A stretch of DNA of 35,359 nucleotides from a virus. The position numbers and the translations under genes are program-made. Shown here piece by piece: positions 5,590-20,251 of this stretch; the stretch's first letter is position 1, and each line of letters begins with the position of its first letter. The stretch is from the UHGV virus genome UHGV-0358463. One strand, 5' to 3'. The notes under the pieces were generated by a model that saw only the letters and a list, made by a program, of their open reading frames with translations, did no database searches and was not told the origin of the DNA.

Positions 5590-6282
5590 TTAATTATGTC
5601 TCTTAAGGGTTTGCGACTGACTGATTAAGACCTTTCCAAAGACCATGAATCGGTGTTCGTTTTCGCTAGTAATTCCCCATTCACGGTAAATCTGGTTATC
5701 AGAAATCACCAGCAGTTTGTCAGGAATCATTTGAAGTCTTTTAACGTATATTTTGTCATCAAAACCAAAGACATATATACCATCACCATCAAACTGATTG
5801 ATGCTGACATCAACGAAGATGAGATCTCCTGGCTCAATGGTTGGACACATACTGTCCCCACGAACGTTGATAACTTTGATGTGATTGGCTGGTCGTCCGC
5901 CGAACATTGATACAGCATTATCAGTTCTGTATTCGATGGCATGAATCACATCAATGACATCACCGCCCTGGATAAGGCCATTTCCCGCACTGGCACTGAT
6001 ATCCAGCATTTCAATACGGAACACATCCTTCACCTGCGCAACATCCTCATTATTACTGTTTTTATATACAGTATTACTTTTGTGGGCAGAGGTAAAGAGA
6101 TCAGCAATATCAACACCTAAGCTCTTGGCAATATTACTCAGTGTTTGTTCGGTAAATTGTTTTTGCTTACCCGTTTCTAAGCGCGAGATGTTCGCCGCAT
6201 CTACTCCTATTGCTTCAGCGAGATCGGCGATTTTCATGTTCTTCGCTTGGCGAAGTTGTCTGACTCGGTTTCCTATGTTCAT
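5590..6282 (-). CDS. cI-type prophage repressor (N-terminal XRE HTH, C-terminal S24 LexA-like peptidase)
   Basis: 230 aa; HTH region IADLAEAIGVDAANISRLETGK; S24 signature ...VRGDSMCPTIEPGDLIFVD...YVKRL... . Confidence 0.9.
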   Translation of the reverse strand: MNIGNRVRQLRQAKNMKIADLAEAIGVDAANISRLETGKQKQFTEQTLSNIAKSLGVDIADLFTSAHKSNTVYKNSNNEDVAQVKDVFRIEMLDISASAGNGLIQGGDVIDVIHAIEYRTDNAVSMFGGRPANHIKVINVRGDSMCPTIEPGDLIFVDVSINQFDGDGIYVFGFDDKIYVKRLQMIPDKLLVISDNQIYREWGITSENEHRFMVFGKVLISQSQTLKRHN

Positions 6283-6302
6283 GCGTTTATTACATTTCTT
6301 TA

Positions 6303-6365
6303 TTGCGTGATAAGCAAATCAACTTGCGCAAAATAATTGCGTGAAATAACATGCATAACGCGCAA
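6303..6365. promoter_or_regulatory. right operator/divergent promoter region between repressor and cro-like genes: TTGCGTGATAAGCAA (6303-6317), palindrome TTGCGCAA (6324-6331), ATGCATAACGCGCAA (6351-6365)
   Basis: Repeated TTGCG/CGCAA half-sites in the 97-bp intergenic region. Confidence 0.5.
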
Positions 6366-6379
6366 TATTTGGAGGGCAT

Positions 6380-6640
6380 ATGCAATCACCATTACGAAAT
6401 GTGCGTAAGGCGCATGGTTTCACTTTGCAGCATGTTGCTGCGGGTGTTCAAGTCAATCCAGCGACGTTGAGTCGTATTGAGAGGCTGGAGCAGATTCCAT
6501 CTATCGAGCTTGCAGAACGTTTAGCCAATTTTTTTAAGGGTGAAGTCAGCGAAATGCAGATTCTTTATCCGGCACGTTTTCAATCTAGCCAAAACCAGAA
6601 TGGGTTTAAACCACAGGAACAGGAGGTGAACCGTGGGTAA
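6380..6640 (+). CDS. Cro-like HTH regulator (XRE family)
   Basis: 86 aa; HTH GFTLQHVAAGVQVNPATLSRIERLEQIPSIELAERLANFF; divergent from the repressor; GGAGGG Shine-Dalgarno. Confidence 0.8.
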   Translation: MQSPLRNVRKAHGFTLQHVAAGVQVNPATLSRIERLEQIPSIELAERLANFFKGEVSEMQILYPARFQSSQNQNGFKPQEQEVNRG

Positions 6641-11141: not shown

Positions 11142-12137
11142 GTGACCGTGAGAGCACTACTGACTCCTGAAATAGCCCCGCGTATGGGGATCGTATTGTT
11201 CAGACCCGGTTCAGAGCTGATGCCCCTGTTTATGCAGGGGCGTGTCCTGCTGGAGCCTGAGCCGGAACGTTATTCATCTTTCGCCAGTGGTGCCGTTCCC
11301 GCGGCATCACAACCGCTGGCGGATGATCCTGCCGTTCGGGCCGTGTTCTGCAATGAGGCAGTGATCCGTCGTACTGGTGGCGTGGAATGTCTTGAAAGCT
11401 GGTTACTTCGTGAAAAGGGCTGTCAGTGGCCTCATTCCGACTGGCACAGCGAGAACATGACCACAATGCGACACGCGCCGGGCGCGATCCGTCTGTGCTG
11501 GCACTGCGATAACCAGCTGCGCGATCAGTTCACGGAACGGTTGGAATCAATGGCAACGGATAACTGTGCCCGCTGGGTGTTGTCTGTTGTGCGTCGGGAT
11601 CTCGGTTTTGATGACAGTCACGTTGTGACAATGCCGGAACTGTGCTGGTGGCTGATTCGTAATGACCTGGCGGATGCCTTACCGGAAAGTGCAGCCCGTA
11701 AGGCACTGAGATTACCGAAGCCTGTTGTGCCGTCTGTCACCCGGGAAAGTGACCTTTTTCCTTCGGTTCCTGCCACCAGCATTATCCAGGATAAAGCGAA
11801 ACAGGTGCTGGCGCTGAAAGTGGATCCAGAGTCGCCGGAGTCTTTTATGTTACGCCCAAAACGTCGCCGCTGGGTTAATGAAAAGTACACGCGCTGGGTT
11901 AAGACACAGCCGTGTGCATGTTGTGGAAAGCCTGCTGATGATCCCCACCACCTGATAGGTCACGGTCAGGGTGGAATGGGTACAAAAGCGCATGACCTCT
12001 TTGTGTTGCCTTTGTGCAGAAAGCATCACGACGAGCTGCATGCGGATACCGTGGCATTTGAAGAGATGTATGGCTCCCAGTTGGAACTGATATTTCGTTT
12101 TATTGATCGTGCGCTGGCAATTGGCGTGCTGGCCTGA
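11142..12137 (+). CDS. DUF968-like phage protein with Cys/His-rich C-terminus
   Basis: 331 aa; GTG start at 11142 (alternative ATG downstream); C-terminal CACCGKPADDPHHLIGHGQGG...CRKHHDELH suggests a zinc-binding, HNH-like motif. Confidence 0.6.
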   Translation: MTVRALLTPEIAPRMGIVLFRPGSELMPLFMQGRVLLEPEPERYSSFASGAVPAASQPLADDPAVRAVFCNEAVIRRTGGVECLESWLLREKGCQWPHSDWHSENMTTMRHAPGAIRLCWHCDNQLRDQFTERLESMATDNCARWVLSVVRRDLGFDDSHVVTMPELCWWLIRNDLADALPESAARKALRLPKPVVPSVTRESDLFPSVPATSIIQDKAKQVLALKVDPESPESFMLRPKRRRWVNEKYTRWVKTQPCACCGKPADDPHHLIGHGQGGMGTKAHDLFVLPLCRKHHDELHADTVAFEEMYGSQLELIFRFIDRALAIGVLA

Positions 12138-12154
12138 TTTGGTGGAGAAAGTTG

Positions 12155-12502
12155 ATGCGTGATATGTATGAAGTATTGGACCGCTGGGGAGCATGGGCTG
12201 CAGCAGAAAATAGTGGTGTGGACTGGCAGCCGATAGCGGCTGGTTTCAAGGGACTTTTACCACACGGTAAAAAGTCACGTCTCCAGTGTGATGATGATGA
12301 AGGCATCATGATAGATAGTTGTGTGGCTAGGTTGCGTAAATATAAGCCGGAAGAGTATGAGCTGATAATTGCTCACTTTGTTATCGGTATCTCATTACGC
12401 ACTATTGCGAAGAAGAGAAAATGCTCTGATGGGACTATAAGAAAAAAGTTGCAAGCTGCATTGGGATTTATTGATGCAGTTATATATATAATACATGGGT
12501 AA
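12155..12502 (+). CDS. late-gene antiterminator Q (phage-82 Q family)
   Basis: 115 aa from the ATG at 12155 (GGAG Shine-Dalgarno); MRDMYEVLDRWGAWAA...DGTIRKKLQAALGFIDAV resembles phage-82-type Q proteins. Confidence 0.75.
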   Translation: MRDMYEVLDRWGAWAAAENSGVDWQPIAAGFKGLLPHGKKSRLQCDDDEGIMIDSCVARLRKYKPEEYELIIAHFVIGISLRTIAKKRKCSDGTIRKKLQAALGFIDAVIYIIHG

Positions 12503-12509
12503 TTTATTA

Positions 12510-12528
12510 GACGGCCATATTGGCCGTC
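12510..12528. terminator. perfect 8-bp hairpin (GACGGCCA-tat-TGGCCGTC) between convergent Q and cassette genes; possible bidirectional terminator
   Basis: Palindrome read directly; flanked by AT-rich sequence on both sides but no clean T-tract. Confidence 0.3.
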
Positions 12529-13705
12529 AGCTAAATAAATATGTAATAGCATAAGGCGTAAGTAAAAAGTAGAACCTAAATGTAAGATATAAGCCACATA
12601 AAACTATAATTCCTAATGAGGCAAAAACAACTTTCTGAACAAGCAATCTTGTGGTTAAACTATCAAATGTATCCTTTATATCTTCGTAAATAGCCTTGAA
12701 GTTATATTCTGCTTGTTGTTTTTTATGATTTAACTCATCATTTATTGCTGTTAAAGTTTGCCATTGATTAAATAGAACAAATAGAATCATAATAGTGAAG
12801 AACAATGCACCCAACACTACAGCTGTATTTATTAATGCTTGACTATCCCAACCATTAGCCTGCTTCATTTGAGTCGCAACGATAATTGTTGCGACGGGGA
12901 TACCTAATATCTGATTTTGTATGTCACTGAATACTTTATGTATTTTTCCCATCTCTTCTATTTTGGCTACTCGTAACTGATCCAGTATTTTCTCGTAAGA
13001 AAAACCAGAAACGAATACTTTGTATCCTTTTTGATAACTTTCATAAAGTTGTCCTAAATCCCTTAACATGAAGGAAAAAGAGGTTTCTTTAGTTTTAGAT
13101 TCACATGATGATTTTATGCTACTTGCTAAAATAGTAAGTTTTTGATCTTTATGCGTATCTTCTGCAAAGTTTGCGATCAAATTATGAATCAGATCTCCAT
13201 TAACATTCATAAGATCATCGCTAGAATAATTTACTGGAATTTTTAGTACGTTGGATTCGACGAATACCAATTCAAAATTTGTTTCATCTAAATAAGCAGA
13301 ACAATCTTTGAATAAAGTAATTAAGCTCAAAACATCTCTGTACTTGGATATAATAGCAGGCGACTTTTTATCCCTGTTGTGATAATTAAGTTCGATTATA
13401 AAGAAGTTACTGGCTTCCTTTATCCTATTTTTAGGATTTTTTAAATACTCATTAAAAGAGAAATGTAGCTGCCCCAATCGTAATTTGGGGGGGGTTATAT
13501 GTAAGGTTATAGTTTGGCCTAACTCAATGTTGCCAGATTCAAGGGTGATGCCAAAATCATGGGGATTCTCTGTGATATCGTTGATGATGTTACAGAGCTC
13601 CTCGTTTGAAAGAATGAGTGATGCTTCAGATAGGGTACCTGCAAATGTAGCGGCCTTGTAAATAGTCACTAAGTCTTTGAAGGTTCTCTGATTGTTACTG
13701 CTCAT
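12527..13705 (-). CDS. cassette gene B: protein with a large soluble N-terminal domain and two C-terminal hydrophobic helices
   Basis: 392 aa from the ATG at 13705 (ORF track gives 13714, a GTG); hydrophobic segments ALINTAVVLGALFFTIMILFVLF and KVVFASLGIIVLCGLYLTFRFYFLL; overlaps gene A by 11 nt. Confidence 0.7.
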   Translation of the reverse strand: MSSNNQRTFKDLVTIYKAATFAGTLSEASLILSNEELCNIINDITENPHDFGITLESGNIELGQTITLHITPPKLRLGQLHFSFNEYLKNPKNRIKEASNFFIIELNYHNRDKKSPAIISKYRDVLSLITLFKDCSAYLDETNFELVFVESNVLKIPVNYSSDDLMNVNGDLIHNLIANFAEDTHKDQKLTILASSIKSSCESKTKETSFSFMLRDLGQLYESYQKGYKVFVSGFSYEKILDQLRVAKIEEMGKIHKVFSDIQNQILGIPVATIIVATQMKQANGWDSQALINTAVVLGALFFTIMILFVLFNQWQTLTAINDELNHKKQQAEYNFKAIYEDIKDTFDSLTTRLLVQKVVFASLGIIVLCGLYLTFRFYFLLTPYAITYLFS

Positions 13706-14729
13706 CCTCTTCACCTAATTCTGATAAAATCTCTGATCTTAGCGTATCCGGAATCTCGGTAAGTATCAATTTATCGTTTTCTGAATCATAAAGAACGCTG
13801 CCATCATGCAAGGCCGCACGCTCGAATTTCAGAGACCAATGTTTGGACTTTCCTTTGAAACTAACAAGCCCACGTATAACGTTGCCATCAGGCACGAACC
13901 CATCAGAGAACTCCAGATCGTCATTGGTTAACTTTTCAACTAACAACTCAGGAGCAGTTGGCCATATCTCGTTTGCAAAAACTTGAGTGTCGAAAGCTTC
14001 ACCAGAACGATTTAAATTTTTTAATTTTTCATGAGCCTTATTTAGGAACTCTTCACGTGCCTCTGGTTCAAAACCTCTTTCAGTAGCAAATTCTAAAAGT
14101 GCATTCCGTAATTTTGTTGTTTCTTGTTTGGCAATTAGAATATCGTTGCAACCTAAAAACTTTTTGAAATAACCTGCTACTGAATTTTGCCCCTTTAGAA
14201 AGCTAATATATCTCTCTTTGCCATTCTGGCGCCCAGTTAAGTCAATTCGTCCCGCTACTCGAAGTTTAGCAATGTCTAGATATTCACTTTCTTGAATTTC
14301 AAAATCGTGGACTGAAGAGCCAACTGCTGATGTTAGGATTGCAACCATCAAATAATGATTTCCATTTACCTCATTATGGGCAATTATTACATAACCACCA
14401 GTAGACATTGATTCATCATCGGCTCTGGCTTTTAAATGATTGATCATTCGGATACTAGTATCATAAAAACTATGTGTTTTATTTACGAAATAATCATCAA
14501 CGATATTACCCATAGGGTAACTATCGCGGTCATCTTCAAATTTACCATATCCTTTACCTGCTCTCCCAGAGTACCTTTCAGTAAGTGCGTTAGAGAGGTC
14601 TTTTGATGCTTGCTGAACAGGTTTTTCTGAAGGACAAGGAATAATGGTGGCTAACCCCTGTTGTTCCTTGTTCATAATGTGAACAATAAACTTATGAGTG
14701 ATATTAGTGGGGGTCGCTGATGCAGTCAT
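13695..14729 (-). CDS. cassette gene A: NdpA/YejK-like nucleoid-associated-protein family homologue
   Basis: 344 aa; AAGGA Shine-Dalgarno at 14738-14742. Collinear matches to E. coli YejK recalled from memory: GGYVIIAH..YLMVAILTS, YLDIAKLRVAGRIDLTG, RYISFLKGQ, VAGYFKKFLGC, LILTEIPDTLRSEI. Confidence 0.75.
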   Translation of the reverse strand: MTASATPTNITHKFIVHIMNKEQQGLATIIPCPSEKPVQQASKDLSNALTERYSGRAGKGYGKFEDDRDSYPMGNIVDDYFVNKTHSFYDTSIRMINHLKARADDESMSTGGYVIIAHNEVNGNHYLMVAILTSAVGSSVHDFEIQESEYLDIAKLRVAGRIDLTGRQNGKERYISFLKGQNSVAGYFKKFLGCNDILIAKQETTKLRNALLEFATERGFEPEAREEFLNKAHEKLKNLNRSGEAFDTQVFANEIWPTAPELLVEKLTNDDLEFSDGFVPDGNVIRGLVSFKGKSKHWSLKFERAALHDGSVLYDSENDKLILTEIPDTLRSEILSELGEEDEQ

Positions 14730-14845
14730 AACAACATCCTTTTAATGGTTTTGAACAATTGGTGTTGATAATACTTCAAAAAATACTAATGCGTACGCAA
14801 AAAATACAGTACTCTGTTAAGAGTGGTTACTTCGCCACACAGCTT

Positions 14846-14876
14846 AAACCCGCCGTCGAGCGGGTTTTGTCGTTTC
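14846..14876 (+). terminator. intrinsic terminator upstream of the lysis genes (candidate tR-prime-like site for Q antitermination)
   Basis: AAACCCGC-cgtcga-GCGGGTTT followed by TTTTGTCGTTT. Confidence 0.5.
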
Positions 14877-15019
14877 TGGGCTTTGGTATTCGTTGGGCTT
14901 GGTCTATCTAGCTCTTATCCATTGGCTCGGCTTCTTTTACGTTTCCGCTTCTGATTTGCGGTTCGTGGTACTCCCTCAATTTGCACCTCTTGTATCGGCG
15001 AGGTGAGAGATAACTACAA

Positions 15020-15346
15020 ATGCCTCATAACCCAAATACCTGGCTGGAGTTGGTCCAGAGCTGGTGGCGTGGAGACACACCGCTGGGCGCAGTGATTATG
15101 TCGATTGTTATGGCTGGTTTGCGCATTGCCTATTTTGGCGGTGGTGGTGGCTGGAAGCGAAAAACACTCGAAATTCTACTCTGTGGCGCTCTGACGCTGA
15201 CTTTTGCATCCGCTCTTGAGTATGTCGGATGGCCTAAATCGCTTTCTGTTGCCATTGGTGGTGGGGTGGGGCTGATCGGTGTCGATGCTATTCGTGGGGC
15301 TGCAATGAGAGTAATCGGTAATAAGTTTGGTGGCTCTAAGGAGTAA
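15020..15346 (+). CDS. putative holin
   Basis: 108 aa, first gene of the lysis cassette; hydrophobic segments GAVIMSIVMAGLRIAYFGG, LEILLCGALTLTFASALEYVGW, SLSVAIGGGVGLIGV. Confidence 0.6.
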   Translation: MPHNPNTWLELVQSWWRGDTPLGAVIMSIVMAGLRIAYFGGGGGWKRKTLEILLCGALTLTFASALEYVGWPKSLSVAIGGGVGLIGVDAIRGAAMRVIGNKFGGSKE

Positions 15347-15349
15347 TTT

Positions 15350-15826
15350 ATGCAGGTACTAAATTCCCAGCGTAAAGCTTTCCTCGATATGGTGGCATGG
15401 TCAGAAGGAACGGATAACGGGCGACAACCGACACGTAACCACGGTTATGATATTATTGTTGGTGGTGAACTATTCACTGATTACTCCGATCACCCTCGCA
15501 AACTTGTCACGCTAAACCCCAAACTCAAATCAACAGCTGCAGGCCGTTATCAACTTCTTTCACGCTGGTGGGATGCTTACCGCAAGCAGCTTGGGCTGAA
15601 AGACTTCTCTCCAAAAAGCCAGGATGCTGTGGCATTGCAGCAGATTAAAGAGCGTGGCGCTTTACCGATGATTGATCGCGGCGATATTCGTCAGGCTATC
15701 GATCGTTGCAGCAATATCTGGGCTTCACTGCCGGGCGCTGGTTACGGTCAATATGAACATAAAATAGGTGACCTGATTGCCCGATTCAAAGAGGCTGGCG
15801 GGGTGGTAAATGAAGTTGAGCTATAA
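15350..15826 (+). CDS. endolysin, lambda R-like lytic transglycosylase
   Basis: 158 aa; near-identity in long stretches to lambda R as recalled (NQRKAFLDM.AWSEGTDNGRQ.TRNHGYD.IVGGELFTDYSDHPRKLVTLNPKLKST). Confidence 0.9.
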   Translation: MQVLNSQRKAFLDMVAWSEGTDNGRQPTRNHGYDIIVGGELFTDYSDHPRKLVTLNPKLKSTAAGRYQLLSRWWDAYRKQLGLKDFSPKSQDAVALQQIKERGALPMIDRGDIRQAIDRCSNIWASLPGAGYGQYEHKIGDLIARFKEAGGVVNEVEL

Positions 15827-16202
15827 GCTGGTTATCGCAGCATTCTTCTCTACTGTCATCGGTTCTTTCATCTGGTCTGCTAACCACTACTACAGCAAAT
15901 ATCAGCACGAAAAGAAACGTGCTGATGAGGCTGTACAAAATGCTGAATCCGCAACCGCTATTACCAATAATGTCCTGCAATCACTGCAAATCGTCAATAC
16001 AGTTCTGGAGGCTAACCAGCATGCAAAACAGCAGATCGCACTGGAGTCACAGAGAACCCAGGAAGATATCAAAGTGGCTGTTGAGAATGATGATTGCGCT
16101 TCCCGTCTTGTTCCTGCTCGTGCAACTGAGCGGCTGCGCCGGTACGCGGACAATTTACGTACCAGTTCCGGCGGTACCACTACCGGCGAACCTGACCGCT
16201 GA
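15810..16202 (+). CDS. i-spanin (Rz-like)
   Basis: 130 aa; N-terminal membrane anchor LVIAAFFSTVIGSFIW then coiled-coil-like sequence; overlaps the endolysin 3' end. Confidence 0.7.
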   Translation: MKLSYKLVIAAFFSTVIGSFIWSANHYYSKYQHEKKRADEAVQNAESATAITNNVLQSLQIVNTVLEANQHAKQQIALESQRTQEDIKVAVENDDCASRLVPARATERLRRYADNLRTSSGGTTTGEPDR

Positions 16203-16344
16203 AACCCCACAGCCAGCTATTCCTGATCCGCTGACTTACAGAGATAGTCTGGATTTAAACGTGAGCCTGCTGTCAGTGCTGGCTGCCTGTAATAGGGATA
16301 AGGCTGATATTCGTAAAATTGAAGCAGAGAAGAGTGAGCCATGA
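16087..16344 (+). CDS. o-spanin (Rz1-like lipoprotein), in the +1 frame and extending past the Rz stop
   Basis: 85 aa; signal peptide with lipobox MMIALPVLFLLVQLSGC, proline-rich mature region. Confidence 0.6.
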   Translation: MMIALPVLFLLVQLSGCAGTRTIYVPVPAVPLPANLTAETPQPAIPDPLTYRDSLDLNVSLLSVLAACNRDKADIRKIEAEKSEP

Positions 16345-16538
16345 AGCAGTAAAGTGGAAAGATCGCAGCAAGAAGTGCCTGTTCAGAATTAATGAAGATG
16401 CCTCAAATACCTAAAATAGCGAGTAGCCAGATGCACGTCAACTACGAGTGTGTGGCCAGCATAACGTTGTATAAACTAAGTGATAGCAGAGTTCAATATA
16501 CGTATACTGAGAGAACTATTTCTATTTGAGAACTGAAA

Positions 16539-17132
16539 ATGACGGACTATACTTTTTTTTACTGGATAGAGATGCTTCTTAAAGAAGGCAATGTTTTATT
16601 TATTGTTCTTGCTTGTTTGATTGTCTTTTTTACTTTAAAAAAAGAAATAATAATGGTTTTAGGTCGTCTTAATACAGTTAAGCTAGGTGACTATGAGATT
16701 AAATTTAAAAAAGAAATGTTTGAAATAGAATCTAAAAGTATAGAGGTTATTAAAAATTTACCTGGAACAAATCCTGTCCTGCCGACACAACTCATTGAGA
16801 ATTTCAATATTTTTGAGAGTCTTGCTAGTACTCAGCCTAATGTTGCTGTACTTTCAGCTTGGCGCGAATTGGAGTTAACCGCTATAACGCTTGCATCTAA
16901 AAAGGGGATTGAGATCAACGGGACATCTTTAGGGCGGGCTTCAGGTATCGCTGCCTTGAAAAATGTCCAATCTGCAAACAAAATTTCTAGTGACATTGTT
17001 AAGCTTTATGAAAAAACAGGAGAGTCTATTAAGCCTATATCCCAAGGAAAGCTCTTATGTACTCAGGAAGATGCTTTGGCATTCTGTAAGAATGCAAAAA
17101 GACTTAGCAATTATTTAACATCCATATTTTAG
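16539..17132 (+). CDS. hypothetical membrane-anchored protein in an AT-rich moron
   Basis: 197 aa; N-terminal hydrophobic helix NVLFIVLACLIVFFTL; AT-rich unlike flanking phage genes; no family recognised. Confidence 0.55.
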   Translation: MTDYTFFYWIEMLLKEGNVLFIVLACLIVFFTLKKEIIMVLGRLNTVKLGDYEIKFKKEMFEIESKSIEVIKNLPGTNPVLPTQLIENFNIFESLASTQPNVAVLSAWRELELTAITLASKKGIEINGTSLGRASGIAALKNVQSANKISSDIVKLYEKTGESIKPISQGKLLCTQEDALAFCKNAKRLSNYLTSIF

Positions 17133-17208
17133 TATGTATCCATAGAGCATCCATTATTATTGGAGTAGTCGTTACAGCAGGCATTCACTGAGTGCCTGCT
17201 GCTGAACT

Positions 17209-17421
17209 CTAATAGCAAGATGGAGAATCTGCATTAAATTTTTGAGAGAGATTACTTATTTCATTCACTCCCTTATGATTAAGTAATCGCCTAATATTTT
17301 CTGGAGCCTTGAATATAAATGGGCCTTTTAGATCCTCGATGATTCCTCCTGCGACGCAGATCAAATGCTTGAAATCAACATCTTCAATTGTGGGCTTGGA
17401 GTCCAGATTATCGCTTGTCAT
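17209..17421 (-). CDS. hypothetical small protein, 70 aa
   Basis: ATG with AAGGA about 9 nt upstream; convergent with the 197-aa gene; AT-rich. Confidence 0.4.
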   Translation of the reverse strand: MTSDNLDSKPTIEDVDFKHLICVAGGIIEDLKGPFIFKAPENIRRLLNHKGVNEISNLSQKFNADSPSCY

Positions 17422-17550
17422 TTAAAAACATCCTTTCTTGCCATTAGCAGCATTGAGCATGTTATGGAATCTGTAATTTAGGATGCTGGTACTACCAGTA
17501 CTTTTTTTGTTTCATTTTGTGAATCACCTCATTTACGAGGGGAGCCTATC

Positions 17551-18026: not shown

Positions 18027-18521
18027 ATGGCTGGAACGGCGGGGCGTTCCGGGCGTCGCCCCAAGCCAACGGCGCGCAAGGCGCTGGCCGGAAACCCCGG
18101 CAAGCGAGCCCTGAATAAAGATGAACCTGTTTTTACGCCCATCAAAGGTGTTGAGCCACCGGAGTGGTTCGCTGAAGAAGATCTCCCTCTCGCCACGACC
18201 ATGTGGCAACTGACAACCAAAGAACTCTGCGGTCAGGGTCTGCTGTGCGTGACTGACCTCGCGGTGCTTGAGCGGTGGTGCGTGGCCTATGAGTTCTGGC
18301 GACGTGCCGTGAAAAATATTGCCAGCCAGGGCAACACCATCACCGGTGCAATGGGCGGTATGGTCAAAAACCCGGAGCTGACCGCCAAGAAAGAACAGGA
18401 GTCCGAGATGAGCAGCACGGGGGCAATGCTCGGACTCGACCCCAGCAGCCGCCAGCGTCTGATAGGCCTGGCGGGGCAGAAGAAAGCCACTAACCCGTTT
18501 CTGAAAATCATCGAATCATGA
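18027..18521 (+). CDS. terminase small subunit (P27 family)
   Basis: 164 aa from the ATG at 18027 (AGGAG 8 nt upstream; the track start at 18018 is a GTG); [27 protein letters not shown] is typical of P27-family small terminases. Confidence 0.85.
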
Positions 18522-20251
18522 GCCGGAAATCTTACCCCAACGTAAATGCTGCCAATCAGTATGCCCGTGATGTCGTGCGGGGAAAGATTGTGGCCTGCCA
18601 GTTTGTGATTCAGGCCTGCCAGCGCCATCTTGATGACCTGATGGCGGAAAAAAGTAAGTCGTTTCGTTACCGCTTCGACAAGGACCTGGCTGAACGGGCC
18701 GCCAAATTTATTCAGCTGTTGCCGCACACCAAGGGTGAGTGGGCATTTAAGAGGATGCCCATCACGCTGGAGCCGTGGCAGCTCTTTGTGATCTGCTGCG
18801 CGTTTGGCTGGGTCAATAAAGGCTCCCGGCTGCGCCGCTTCCGTGAGGTGTATACCGAAATCCCCCGTAAGAACGGCAAATCGGCAATCTCTGCCGGTGT
18901 CGCCCTGTATTGTTTTGCCTGTGATAACGAGTTTGGCGCGGAAGTGTATTCCGGTGCCACGACAGAGAAACAGGCGTGGGAAGTCTTTCGCCCGGCGCGA
19001 CTGATGTGTAAACGCACACCCATGCTGACGGAAGCGTTCGGGATTGAGGTTAACGCCTCAAACATGAACCGTCCGGAGGATGGCGCGCGGTTTGAACCGC
19101 TGATCGGTAACCCCGGTGATGGATCATCACCCCACTGTGCGGTGGTGGATGAATATCACGAGCACGCCACCGATGCGCTTTACACCACGATGCTTACCGG
19201 GATGGGGGCGCGACGTCAGCCACTGATGTGGGCCATTACTACTGCCGGGTACAACATTGAGGGGCCGTGCTACGACAAACGGCGGGAAGTTATCGAGATG
19301 CTCAACGGTTCGGTACCCAACGATGAACTGTTCGGGATCATCTATACCGTTGACGAAGGTGACGACTGGACCAACCCACAGGTGCTGGAAAAAGCCAACC
19401 CGAATATCGGGGTGTCGGTTTACCGTGAGTTTTTGTTAAGTCAGCAACAGCGTGCGAAAAATAACGCCCGTCTGGCAAACGTCTTTAAAACAAAACACCT
19501 CAATATCTGGGTGTCGGCGCGTTCGGCGTATTTCAACCTGGTGAGCTGGCAGAGCTGCGAGGATAAATCACTGACTCTTGAGCAATTCGAGGGGCAGCCG
19601 TGCATTCTGGCCTTTGACCTGGCGCGTAAACTGGATATGAACAGCATGGCGCGACTTTATACCCGCGAGATTGACGGTAAAACGCATTACTACAGTGTGG
19701 CCCCGCGTTTCTGGGTACCGTATGACACGGTGTACAGCGTCGAGAAAAATGAAGATCGCCGGACAGCCGAACGCTTTCAGAAATGGGTGGAAATGGGCGT
19801 CCTGACCGTTACCGATGGTGCAGAGGTGGATTATCGCTACATCCTCGAAGAGGCCAAAGCGGCGAACAAAATCAGCCCGGTCAGCGAGTCACCCATCGAC
19901 CCCTTCGGGGCGACCGGGCTGTCACATGACCTTGCTGATGAAGACCTGAATCCCGTCACTATCTTCCAGAACTTCACCAATATGTCCGATCCGATGAAAG
20001 AGCTGGAAGCAGCGATTGAATCGGGACGTTTTCATCATGACGGCAATCCCATCATGACCTGGTGTATCGGCAACGTGGTCGGCAAAAACATGCCGGGTAA
20101 CGATGATGTGGTGAAACCCGTCAAAGAGCAGGCGGAAAACAAAATTGACGGTGCAGTTGCGCTGATTATGGCGGTTGGCAGAGCCATGCTGTACGAGAAA
20201 GAAGACACGCTGTCTGATCACATTGAGTCCTACGGGATCCGCTCGCTTTAA
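18518..20251 (+). CDS. terminase large subunit
   Basis: 577 aa; Walker-A-like PRKNGKS, ATPase and nuclease halves; ATGA overlap with the small subunit. Confidence 0.9.

Follow-up and report, generated by a model that had tools for sequence, protein, structure and literature searches.

The cassette and its two proteins

The stretch of DNA analysed here, the virus genome UHGV-0358463 (35,359 nucleotides, hereafter the window), carries a cassette of two minus-strand genes between the gene of the Q antiterminator and the lysis genes. The upstream gene (gene A, 13695–14729) encodes a YejK/NA37-family nucleoid-associated protein (NAP) of 344 amino acids (aa; RefSeq WP_048228897.1), which is presumed to be a DNA-bound sensor, and the downstream gene (gene B, 12527–13705) encodes a predicted membrane protein of 392 aa (RefSeq WP_000097747.1), which is presumed to be the effector. 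Our results suggest that these two genes probably form an anti-phage system carried by a prophage and of a kind that has already been described.

The two genes overlap by 11 nt (13695–13705, minus strand), with the stop of gene A lying over the start of gene B, a geometry typical of translational coupling. This overlap holds for the ATG start of gene B at 13705, which is the RefSeq choice (392 aa) and is preceded 6 nt upstream by the sequence AGGTGA, while an alternative GTG at 13714, nine bases upstream, would give a protein of 395 aa (12527–13714). The leader of gene A (14730–14823, minus strand) contains the Shine-Dalgarno sequence AAGGA at 14741–14737, 7 nt before the ATG, and the promoter is presumed to lie there; this leader is conserved together with the cassette up to position 14823 in a Salmonella prophage. 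We infer that the cassette is expressed in the lysogen. Both genes are antiparallel to Q (12152–12502, plus strand) and to the holin gene (15020–15346, plus strand), and their G+C content is low (38.6% for gene A and 33.0% for gene B) when compared to the window (51.0%) and to the flanking 500-nt bins (52–57%). Such a composition is foreign to the surrounding prophage, and we counted it in favour of a defence function. All these features, i.e., the two overlapping genes with their coordinates and lengths (with the ATG start of gene B), the AT-rich composition, the orientation against both Q and the late genes and the presence of a ribosome-binding site of their own, had been read from the letters alone in a first-pass annotation of the window, and each of them was recovered in the present analysis.

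The same annotation had aligned gene A collinearly with the NdpA/YejK family over its whole length, which the profile search confirmed. Indeed, gene A is a full-length match to the Pfam family NA37 (PF04245), with 232 bits for a gathering cut-off of 24.6 (E 1.5e-68), and its residues 15–330 cover the profile positions 1–324 of 325. Gene A also matches PHROG 3767 ‘nucleoid associated protein’ (E 4.6e-80), which is placed by PHROGs in the class of DNA/RNA metabolism, as well as the YejK entry of the PDB (9be2, E 1.7e-19). When compared to the NCBIfam equivalog of YejK (NF001557), gene A reached 165 bits (E 2.4e-48), and because the equivalog cut-off is 341 bits, it does not qualify as the housekeeping YejK. 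Scored in this way, gene A is a paralogous NA37 member borne by mobile elements and not YejK itself.

For gene B, no Pfam family match was found, and the protein belongs to PHROG 5023 (E 1.6e-79). Its hydropathy profile peaks at residues 288–316 and 350–384, and the AlphaFold2 model (predicted local distance difference test, pLDDT, of 81) displays an alpha/beta domain (residues 1–180), helices (186–280) and two long helices (288–335 and 340–382), in agreement with the large soluble N-terminal domain and the two C-terminal hydrophobic helices announced by the first reading. The soluble alpha/beta domain (residues 1–185; 13151–13705, minus strand) is presumed to be the docking site of gene A, by analogy with the PANGU effector Pag2B (see below). 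It is followed by a helical core (residues 186–285; 12851–13150, minus strand) that contains the most conserved motif of the superfamily, which reads DTHKDQKL ... GYxxFxSGFSYxKIxDQL..AKxEE.GKIHK.FSDIQNQILGIPVAT and whose columns are invariant in two family alignments. Finally, the two long hydrophobic helices (residues 288–384; 12554–12844, minus strand) are arranged as a hairpin and are presumed to insert into the membrane or to disrupt it. Searching the PDB by Foldseek with the full-length model returned nothing at E <= 0.001, and such full-length fold searches were unspecific; likewise, the gene B family profile gave no match among PDB sequences. Note that Table S10 of the DefensePredictor study includes the exact protein of gene B, WP_000097747.1, under the label ‘Predicted novel defense gene’ (log-odds of 11.97).

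Both proteins show homology to DS-1 (working identifier D390), a two-gene system from E. coli made of WP_000355468.1 and WP_000150292.1, which was reported in this DefensePredictor study (preprint in January 2025, Science 2026) and scored defensive when cloned alone (PMC13092281). Its protection, expressed as −log of the efficiency of plating (EOP), reached 7.6 for Bas1, 2.7 for Bas26, 1.7 for Bas3, 1.7 for T3, 1.0 for T5 and 0.9 for T7 (PMC13092281). DS-1A (WP_000355468.1) has 391 aa and belongs to the NA37 family, with a zinc ribbon at its N-terminus, and DS-1B (WP_000150292.1) is a protein of 404 aa with a hydrophobic C-terminus (PMC13092281); the two genes occupy coordinates 220602–221777 and 221780–222994, the partner beginning 3 nt after the NA37 gene. 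The N-terminus of DS-1A reads MDITCLECGN...CDKCG and its NA37 match spans residues 42–382, whereas gene A, in which the NA37 match starts at residue 15, has neither an N-terminal Cys pair nor a zinc ribbon.

By BLASTP, gene A shares 25% identity with DS-1A over 197 aa (E 3e-10) and gene B shares 28% identity with DS-1B over 104 aa (E 4e-7). Both proteins match the corresponding NCBIfam models and miss their equivalog cut-offs, with 56.4 vs 330 bits (E 2.4e-15) for gene A against DS1_1_antiphage (NF053868, ‘nucleoid-associated anti-phage protein’) and 70.3 vs 315 bits (E 1.6e-19) for gene B against DS1_2_antiphage (NF053869). In searches with single sequences, we collected 369 clusters for the gene B family and 69 for DS-1B, and neither family retrieved the other. 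The comparison of profiles did link them, since the gene B family profile scored 94.8% against the single DS-1B sequence and, by hhalign, 98.7% against the DS-1B family profile (E 2.3e-16, ~15% identity) over 345 collinear columns (3–358 against 8–376). Within this alignment, the core of gene B faces the DS-1B core Y.E.YTKRFSVNKILNELDEK.LEFTSKINE.ISS.QTKALTIPGAL, and the motif common to the two families is centred around GYxxFxSGFSYxKIxDQL...KIHKxFSDIQNQILGIPVAT. By these profile comparisons, the cassette is a distant sister family of DS-1 and not DS-1 itself.

Pairing of the two genes and the prophage slot

The first-pass annotation had treated the two genes as one unit, and a check of their co-occurrence across genomes bears this out, the pair being strictly co-conserved. 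Indeed, wherever sequence was available upstream of an intact B homologue, the gene immediately preceding it on the same strand was an A homologue, which represents 63 loci carried by prophages or by other mobile elements in Alpha-, Beta- and Gammaproteobacteria. A degenerate-pattern scan over one genome per species returned 28 loci, and an A homologue ending at the B start was found in all the 24 loci with an intact B homologue (30–71% identity to gene B), while in IMG/VR the pair was present in 38 out of 38 loci with upstream sequence. The two genes overlap or closely abut in 22 of 25 homologous loci, the remaining three being artefacts of start-codon choice. In addition, the identities of A and B co-vary across loci (Spearman 0.88), which is weak evidence alone because it also reflects shared phylogeny.

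Two candidates for a gene B without gene A were examined and rejected. One of them (locus L030) was a chance match, and the other, found in three Cupriavidus records (L027–L029), was a C-terminal remnant of 208 aa. This Cupriavidus ORF (open reading frame; 6004–6630) retains only the conserved core and the hydrophobic helices, with 40% identity and no NA37 gene nearby; it is probably a truncated relic, and possibly a stand-alone effector fragment. In Xenorhabdus budapestensis (L039, 6211–8017), the NA37 gene that precedes the gene B homologue is split into ORFs of 247 and 97 aa that are ~770 nt apart, so that this copy, which adjoins phage tail genes and a RelB/YafQ pair, looks decayed or interrupted.

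At a larger scale, a profile of the gene B family was searched against 1.84 billion cluster representatives, of which 1,158 passed E <= 1e-3 and 330 the stricter E <= 1e-30. Among complete E. coli genomes, 16 of 5,426 contain the cassette, which many genomes of Salmonella, Klebsiella, Serratia and Yersinia carry as well. Among phage GenBank records, megablast matched the flanks of the cassette only, and tblastn was required to recover relatives in Klebsiella phage Kp4865-4, in a faecal phage and in Sinorhizobium phage phi2LM21, where the pair corresponds to p68/p67 and lies beside a methyltransferase gene. The contexts of the pair include lambdoid prophages (E. coli, Salmonella), Mu-like prophages, as well as one mobilisable element that encodes ParA/ParG, Fic and a helicase of relaxase type. 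As an example of the Mu-like context, Jeongeupia wiesaeckerbachi carries two identical copies of the pair in one genome (loci L012, L013 and L036), one of which (L036), borne by a Mu-like prophage, immediately precedes a VanY-type endolysin gene and is co-oriented with the phage genes, in contrast to the antisense arrangement observed in lambdoid prophages.

The window itself is an E. coli prophage whose integration site adjoins tRNA-Thr(CGU) (115–190), and it has lambdoid early genes, the Q antiterminator, lambda-type lysis genes, HK97-type head genes and a contractile tail. Over the stretches tested, its region 11600–15900 is 99.9% identical to a prophage adjoining proA in E. coli JX21CE8. 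The terminase large subunit is an intact ORF of 577 aa in the window (18518–20251) and is annotated as frameshifted in the JX21CE8 prophage (L001, 21016–22748); since this ORF is intact, the prophage of the window may still be inducible.

The cassette fills a variable segment between Q and the late leader preceding the holin gene (12475–14764). Homology to Shigella phage SfII ends at 12474, within the end of Q, and restarts at 14765. In sister prophages, the same slot between Q and holin contains other genes, always in antisense orientation, i.e., a KAP-family NTPase, a TIR protein with a caspase-family protein, a hypothetical protein with a KwaB-like protein, SfII_50/49, a DNA methyltransferase or a DUF6731 protein. 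Such a variety of antisense cargo is what characterises a prophage defence hotspot. SfII_49/50, which have no family assignment, may represent another candidate defence pair.

The Q antiterminator (12152–12502, Pfam Phage_antitermQ, E 1.2e-44) is convergent with the cassette, and the same arrangement, with Q convergent downstream of B, was found in all 15 IMG/VR loci with a B at least 49% identical, as well as in the Salmonella prophage. The latter is lambdoid with otherwise different (lambda-type) head genes, and it shares 75.7% DNA identity with the window over 12155–14823. The Q gene and the cassette thus travel together as one convergent module, in which transcription continuing from Q at induction might conceivably enter the cassette in antisense. 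On the other side of the cassette, a terminator-like hairpin followed by a T tract was detected by scan at 14846–14867 (plus strand), within the conserved late leader that precedes the holin gene, so that the cassette stands upstream of the late transcription unit and not inside it. The segment 14779–15019 recurs at ~96% identity among the matches listed, in a search that matched ~2,480 E. coli genomes overall; the late promoter, together with a tR'-like target of Q, probably lies there.

A second AT-rich island (16303–17550, G+C of 34–37%) was observed directly after the lysis genes and is a second cargo hotspot. It carries an ORF of 197 aa (16539–17132, plus strand) with a hydrophobic N-terminus, assigned to PHROG 30030 and to no Pfam or NCBIfam family, and an ORF of 70 aa (17209–17421, minus strand) assigned to PHROG 22590. 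In sister prophages, this second slot is occupied by IS911 with a hypothetical gene, or by DUF6979 with KilA-N.

Proposed function and its alternatives

The first-pass annotation had likened the cassette to sensor-plus-effector modules of abortive-infection type residing in a moron hotspot. Our analysis supports this reading through the homology to DS-1, the architecture shared with type II PANGU, the strict pairing of the two genes, their residence on mobile elements, the cargo of the slot and its hotspot signature, and the listing of gene B by DefensePredictor. The PANGU systems were described in April 2026 as two-gene operons associating a YejK-like protein with an effector (bioRxiv 10.64898/2026.04.06.716658). 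In type II PANGU, the NAP Pag2A is joined to the transmembrane effector Pag2B, whose transmembrane region is C-terminal and whose N-terminal domain binds Pag2A with a dissociation constant (KD) of 19 nM; both genes are required, single genes are non-toxic, the phenotype is that of an abortive infection, and the NAP is an activator and not an antitoxin (bioRxiv 10.64898/2026.04.06.716658). For PANGU Ecu, in which growth is arrested at high multiplicity of infection (MOI), and only for this system, it was shown that GFP-Pag2A leaves the nucleoid upon T4 infection and that T4 mutants of denA (EndoII) escape (bioRxiv 10.64898/2026.04.06.716658).

Based on these homologues and analogues, we consider it likely that the cassette is a two-gene anti-phage system in which a nucleoid-associated sensor and a membrane effector would abort the infection. 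In the lysogen, gene A would be bound to the host chromosome, and gene B, embedded in the inner membrane and facing the cytoplasm by its N-terminal domain, would remain inactive. Once an infecting lytic phage breaks down or reorganises the nucleoid of the host, gene A would lose its DNA substrate, and the free protein would bind the N-terminal domain of gene B. The helical hairpin of gene B would then compromise the membrane, and the infected cell would arrest or die before completion of the phage cycle, thereby protecting the sister lysogens. We infer each of these functional steps, and the trigger as well, from the related systems, in which the anti-phage activity, the requirement for two genes, the absence of toxicity of single genes, the abortive infection and the relocation of the sensor were described.

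Several points weigh against this reading. The anti-phage phenotype of the gene A/B family is a predicted one, and function cannot be transferred automatically from DS-1 because the scores of both proteins fall far under the equivalog cut-offs. The PANGU work is a preprint, which leaves open how Pag2A activates Pag2B (bioRxiv 10.64898/2026.04.06.716658), and the membership of the cassette in type II is a putative one, drawn from the likeness of its architecture to the published description. The N-terminal domain of Pag2B is described as strongly acidic and DNA-mimicking (bioRxiv 10.64898/2026.04.06.716658). That of gene B is only mildly acidic, with a net charge of −4 over residues 1–285 (−9 for the family median and −9 for DS-1B, residues 1–265), so that the published ‘DNA-mimic’ property is not evident from its sequence, and its weak fold resemblance is to DNA-binding folds of WhiA/LAGLIDADG type and not to a mimic. 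Concerning expression, no sigma-70-like site was found by consensus scan on the minus strand upstream of gene A, and manual reading of 14730–14850 revealed weak hexamers only. Genes A and B also remained unmatched in PADLOC-DB v2.0.0 at E values up to 1, but this null result is uninformative, as the database is older than the DS-1 and PANGU papers. Finally, a lysis-related role is conceivable because the pair adjoins lysis genes in the lambdoid and Mu-like prophages examined.

Three other explanations were weighed, and all were ranked low. Superinfection exclusion without cell death, in which the membrane protein and the DNA-binding protein would stop or trap phage DNA arriving at the inner membrane, leaving the lysogen alive, seems improbable to us. 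It would suit the combination of such proteins on a prophage, in the orientation of classical exclusion genes expressed by lysogens, and it would also be compatible with the 7.6-log decrease of Bas1 plating by DS-1, for which the EOP table gives no mode of action. However, PANGU Ecu, the architectural equivalent that was studied in detail, arrests growth at high MOI with its sensor off the nucleoid, and the phage escapes it through a nuclease gene and not through an injection function. We give somewhat less credit to the idea that the pair serves the cycle of the prophage itself, as a nucleoid protein and a membrane partner tuning the timing of lysis or the control of lysogeny. The neighbourhood of the lysis cassette in lambdoid and Mu-like prophages, the stable linkage to one Q type in the 15 IMG/VR loci mentioned above and the PHROGs class of gene A all point in that direction, but the pair is antisense to both early and late transcripts in lambdoid phages, which places it outside the lytic programme, and it is dispensable, since sister prophages have unrelated cargo in the slot. 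Moreover, the pair is also found far from lysis genes, in the mobilisable element and in Sinorhizobium phage phi2LM21, and the homologous DS-1 protects when cloned without any phage context.

Least credible in our view is a toxin-antitoxin or addiction module that would stabilise the prophage without sensing infection, gene B being a membrane toxin and gene A its neutraliser. Coupling by the 11-nt overlap and strict co-inheritance on mobile elements would be expected from such a module, and small membrane hairpin proteins like gene B are often toxic. Yet single-gene PANGU constructs are non-toxic and the NAP activates the effector there, while gene A would be an unusual antitoxin, being located upstream, as large as the toxin and drawn from an abundant family of chromosomal DNA-binding proteins. 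In addition, the decayed copies (Cupriavidus, and Xenorhabdus with its split NA37 gene) have lost gene A and kept a fragment of gene B, which an active toxin would hardly permit, although these fragments are truncated.

We also considered a variant of the abortive-infection reading adapted to prophages, which would have a logic of its own when compared to DS-1 and PANGU and which we hold to be unlikely. The N-terminal domain of the effector would be a degenerate LAGLIDADG/WhiA-like module contacting DNA instead of imitating it, so that sensor and effector would be tethered to the nucleoid and released together. In addition, the conserved convergence with one type of Q would allow read-through from the early operon to silence the cassette by antisense transcription when the prophage itself is induced, thereby switching off a guard that kills the host.

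Comparison with known systems

Among the known proteins, the housekeeping YejK (NdpA of E. coli, PDB 9be2) belongs to the same Pfam family and length class as gene A and matches it collinearly. Unlike YejK, gene A is encoded by a prophage within AT-rich DNA, is always paired with gene B and falls under the equivalog cut-off. Gene A nevertheless remains nearer to the canonical YejK (E 2.4e-48) than to DS-1A (E 2.4e-15).

DS-1 and the cassette have the same plan, i.e., a two-gene operon on one strand, in which an NA37/YejK-family gene comes first and is followed by the gene of a ~400-aa protein with C-terminal hydrophobic helices, with tight coupling in both cases (3-nt spacing in DS-1 and 11-nt overlap here), and the homology of gene B to the DS-1B family spans its length (345 aligned columns). 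This relationship is remote, with ~25% identity over 197 aa for A and ~15% at the profile level for B, and DS-1A has an N-terminal CxxC...CxxC zinc ribbon that gene A does not have. The gene B family is also larger than the DS-1B family in the databases searched (369 vs 69 clusters).

Type II PANGU and the cassette are both bicistronic and associate a YejK-like NAP with an effector whose transmembrane part is C-terminal (predicted in gene B). They differ in that the effector domain is strongly acidic in type II PANGU and mildly acidic in gene B, and in that the PANGU loci were chosen by their linkage to defence islands whereas the gene B family occurs mostly within prophages. Type II PANGU has spread across phyla by horizontal transfer (bioRxiv 10.64898/2026.04.06.716658), and our model of the cassette follows the mechanism that was proposed for it. 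Note that the cassette might belong instead to Cluster 3 of the preprint (NAP with a downstream hypothetical protein) rather than to Cluster 2 (type II). In type I PANGU (Pag1A with the GRel toxSAS Pag1B), the sensor is of the same kind, a YejK-like protein set free when its DNA is degraded, and the logic of an effector activated by its sensor is that of the model adopted here; in contrast, Pag1B is a soluble alarmone synthetase producing pppGpp, is not a membrane protein and has no similarity to gene B.

The first-pass annotation regarded this composition as undescribed, which was not borne out, since the same composition was validated as DS-1 and analysed as type II PANGU, and since WP_000097747.1 was already listed by DefensePredictor. 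The pair therefore matches a characterised system at the level of its kind, and not at that of a close family. If the cassette protects, it would extend the principle that a nucleoid protein reports the lost integrity of the chromosome to a killer effector, and it would add to DS-1 a second sequence family, larger than the first (as many as 1,158 cluster representatives vs 69 DS-1B clusters) and carried for the most part by temperate phages. The known prophage defence hotspots would be extended by one, namely the Q-to-late-leader slot of SfII/mEp460-type prophages with its antisense cassettes, and the name of a candidate defence pair could replace the current labels ‘hypothetical protein’ and ‘nucleoid-associated protein’ in annotations. 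Altogether, the cassette is a probable defence system that opens no new category and stands as a divergent further member of the known kind, in which a nucleoid sensor is coupled to a membrane effector.

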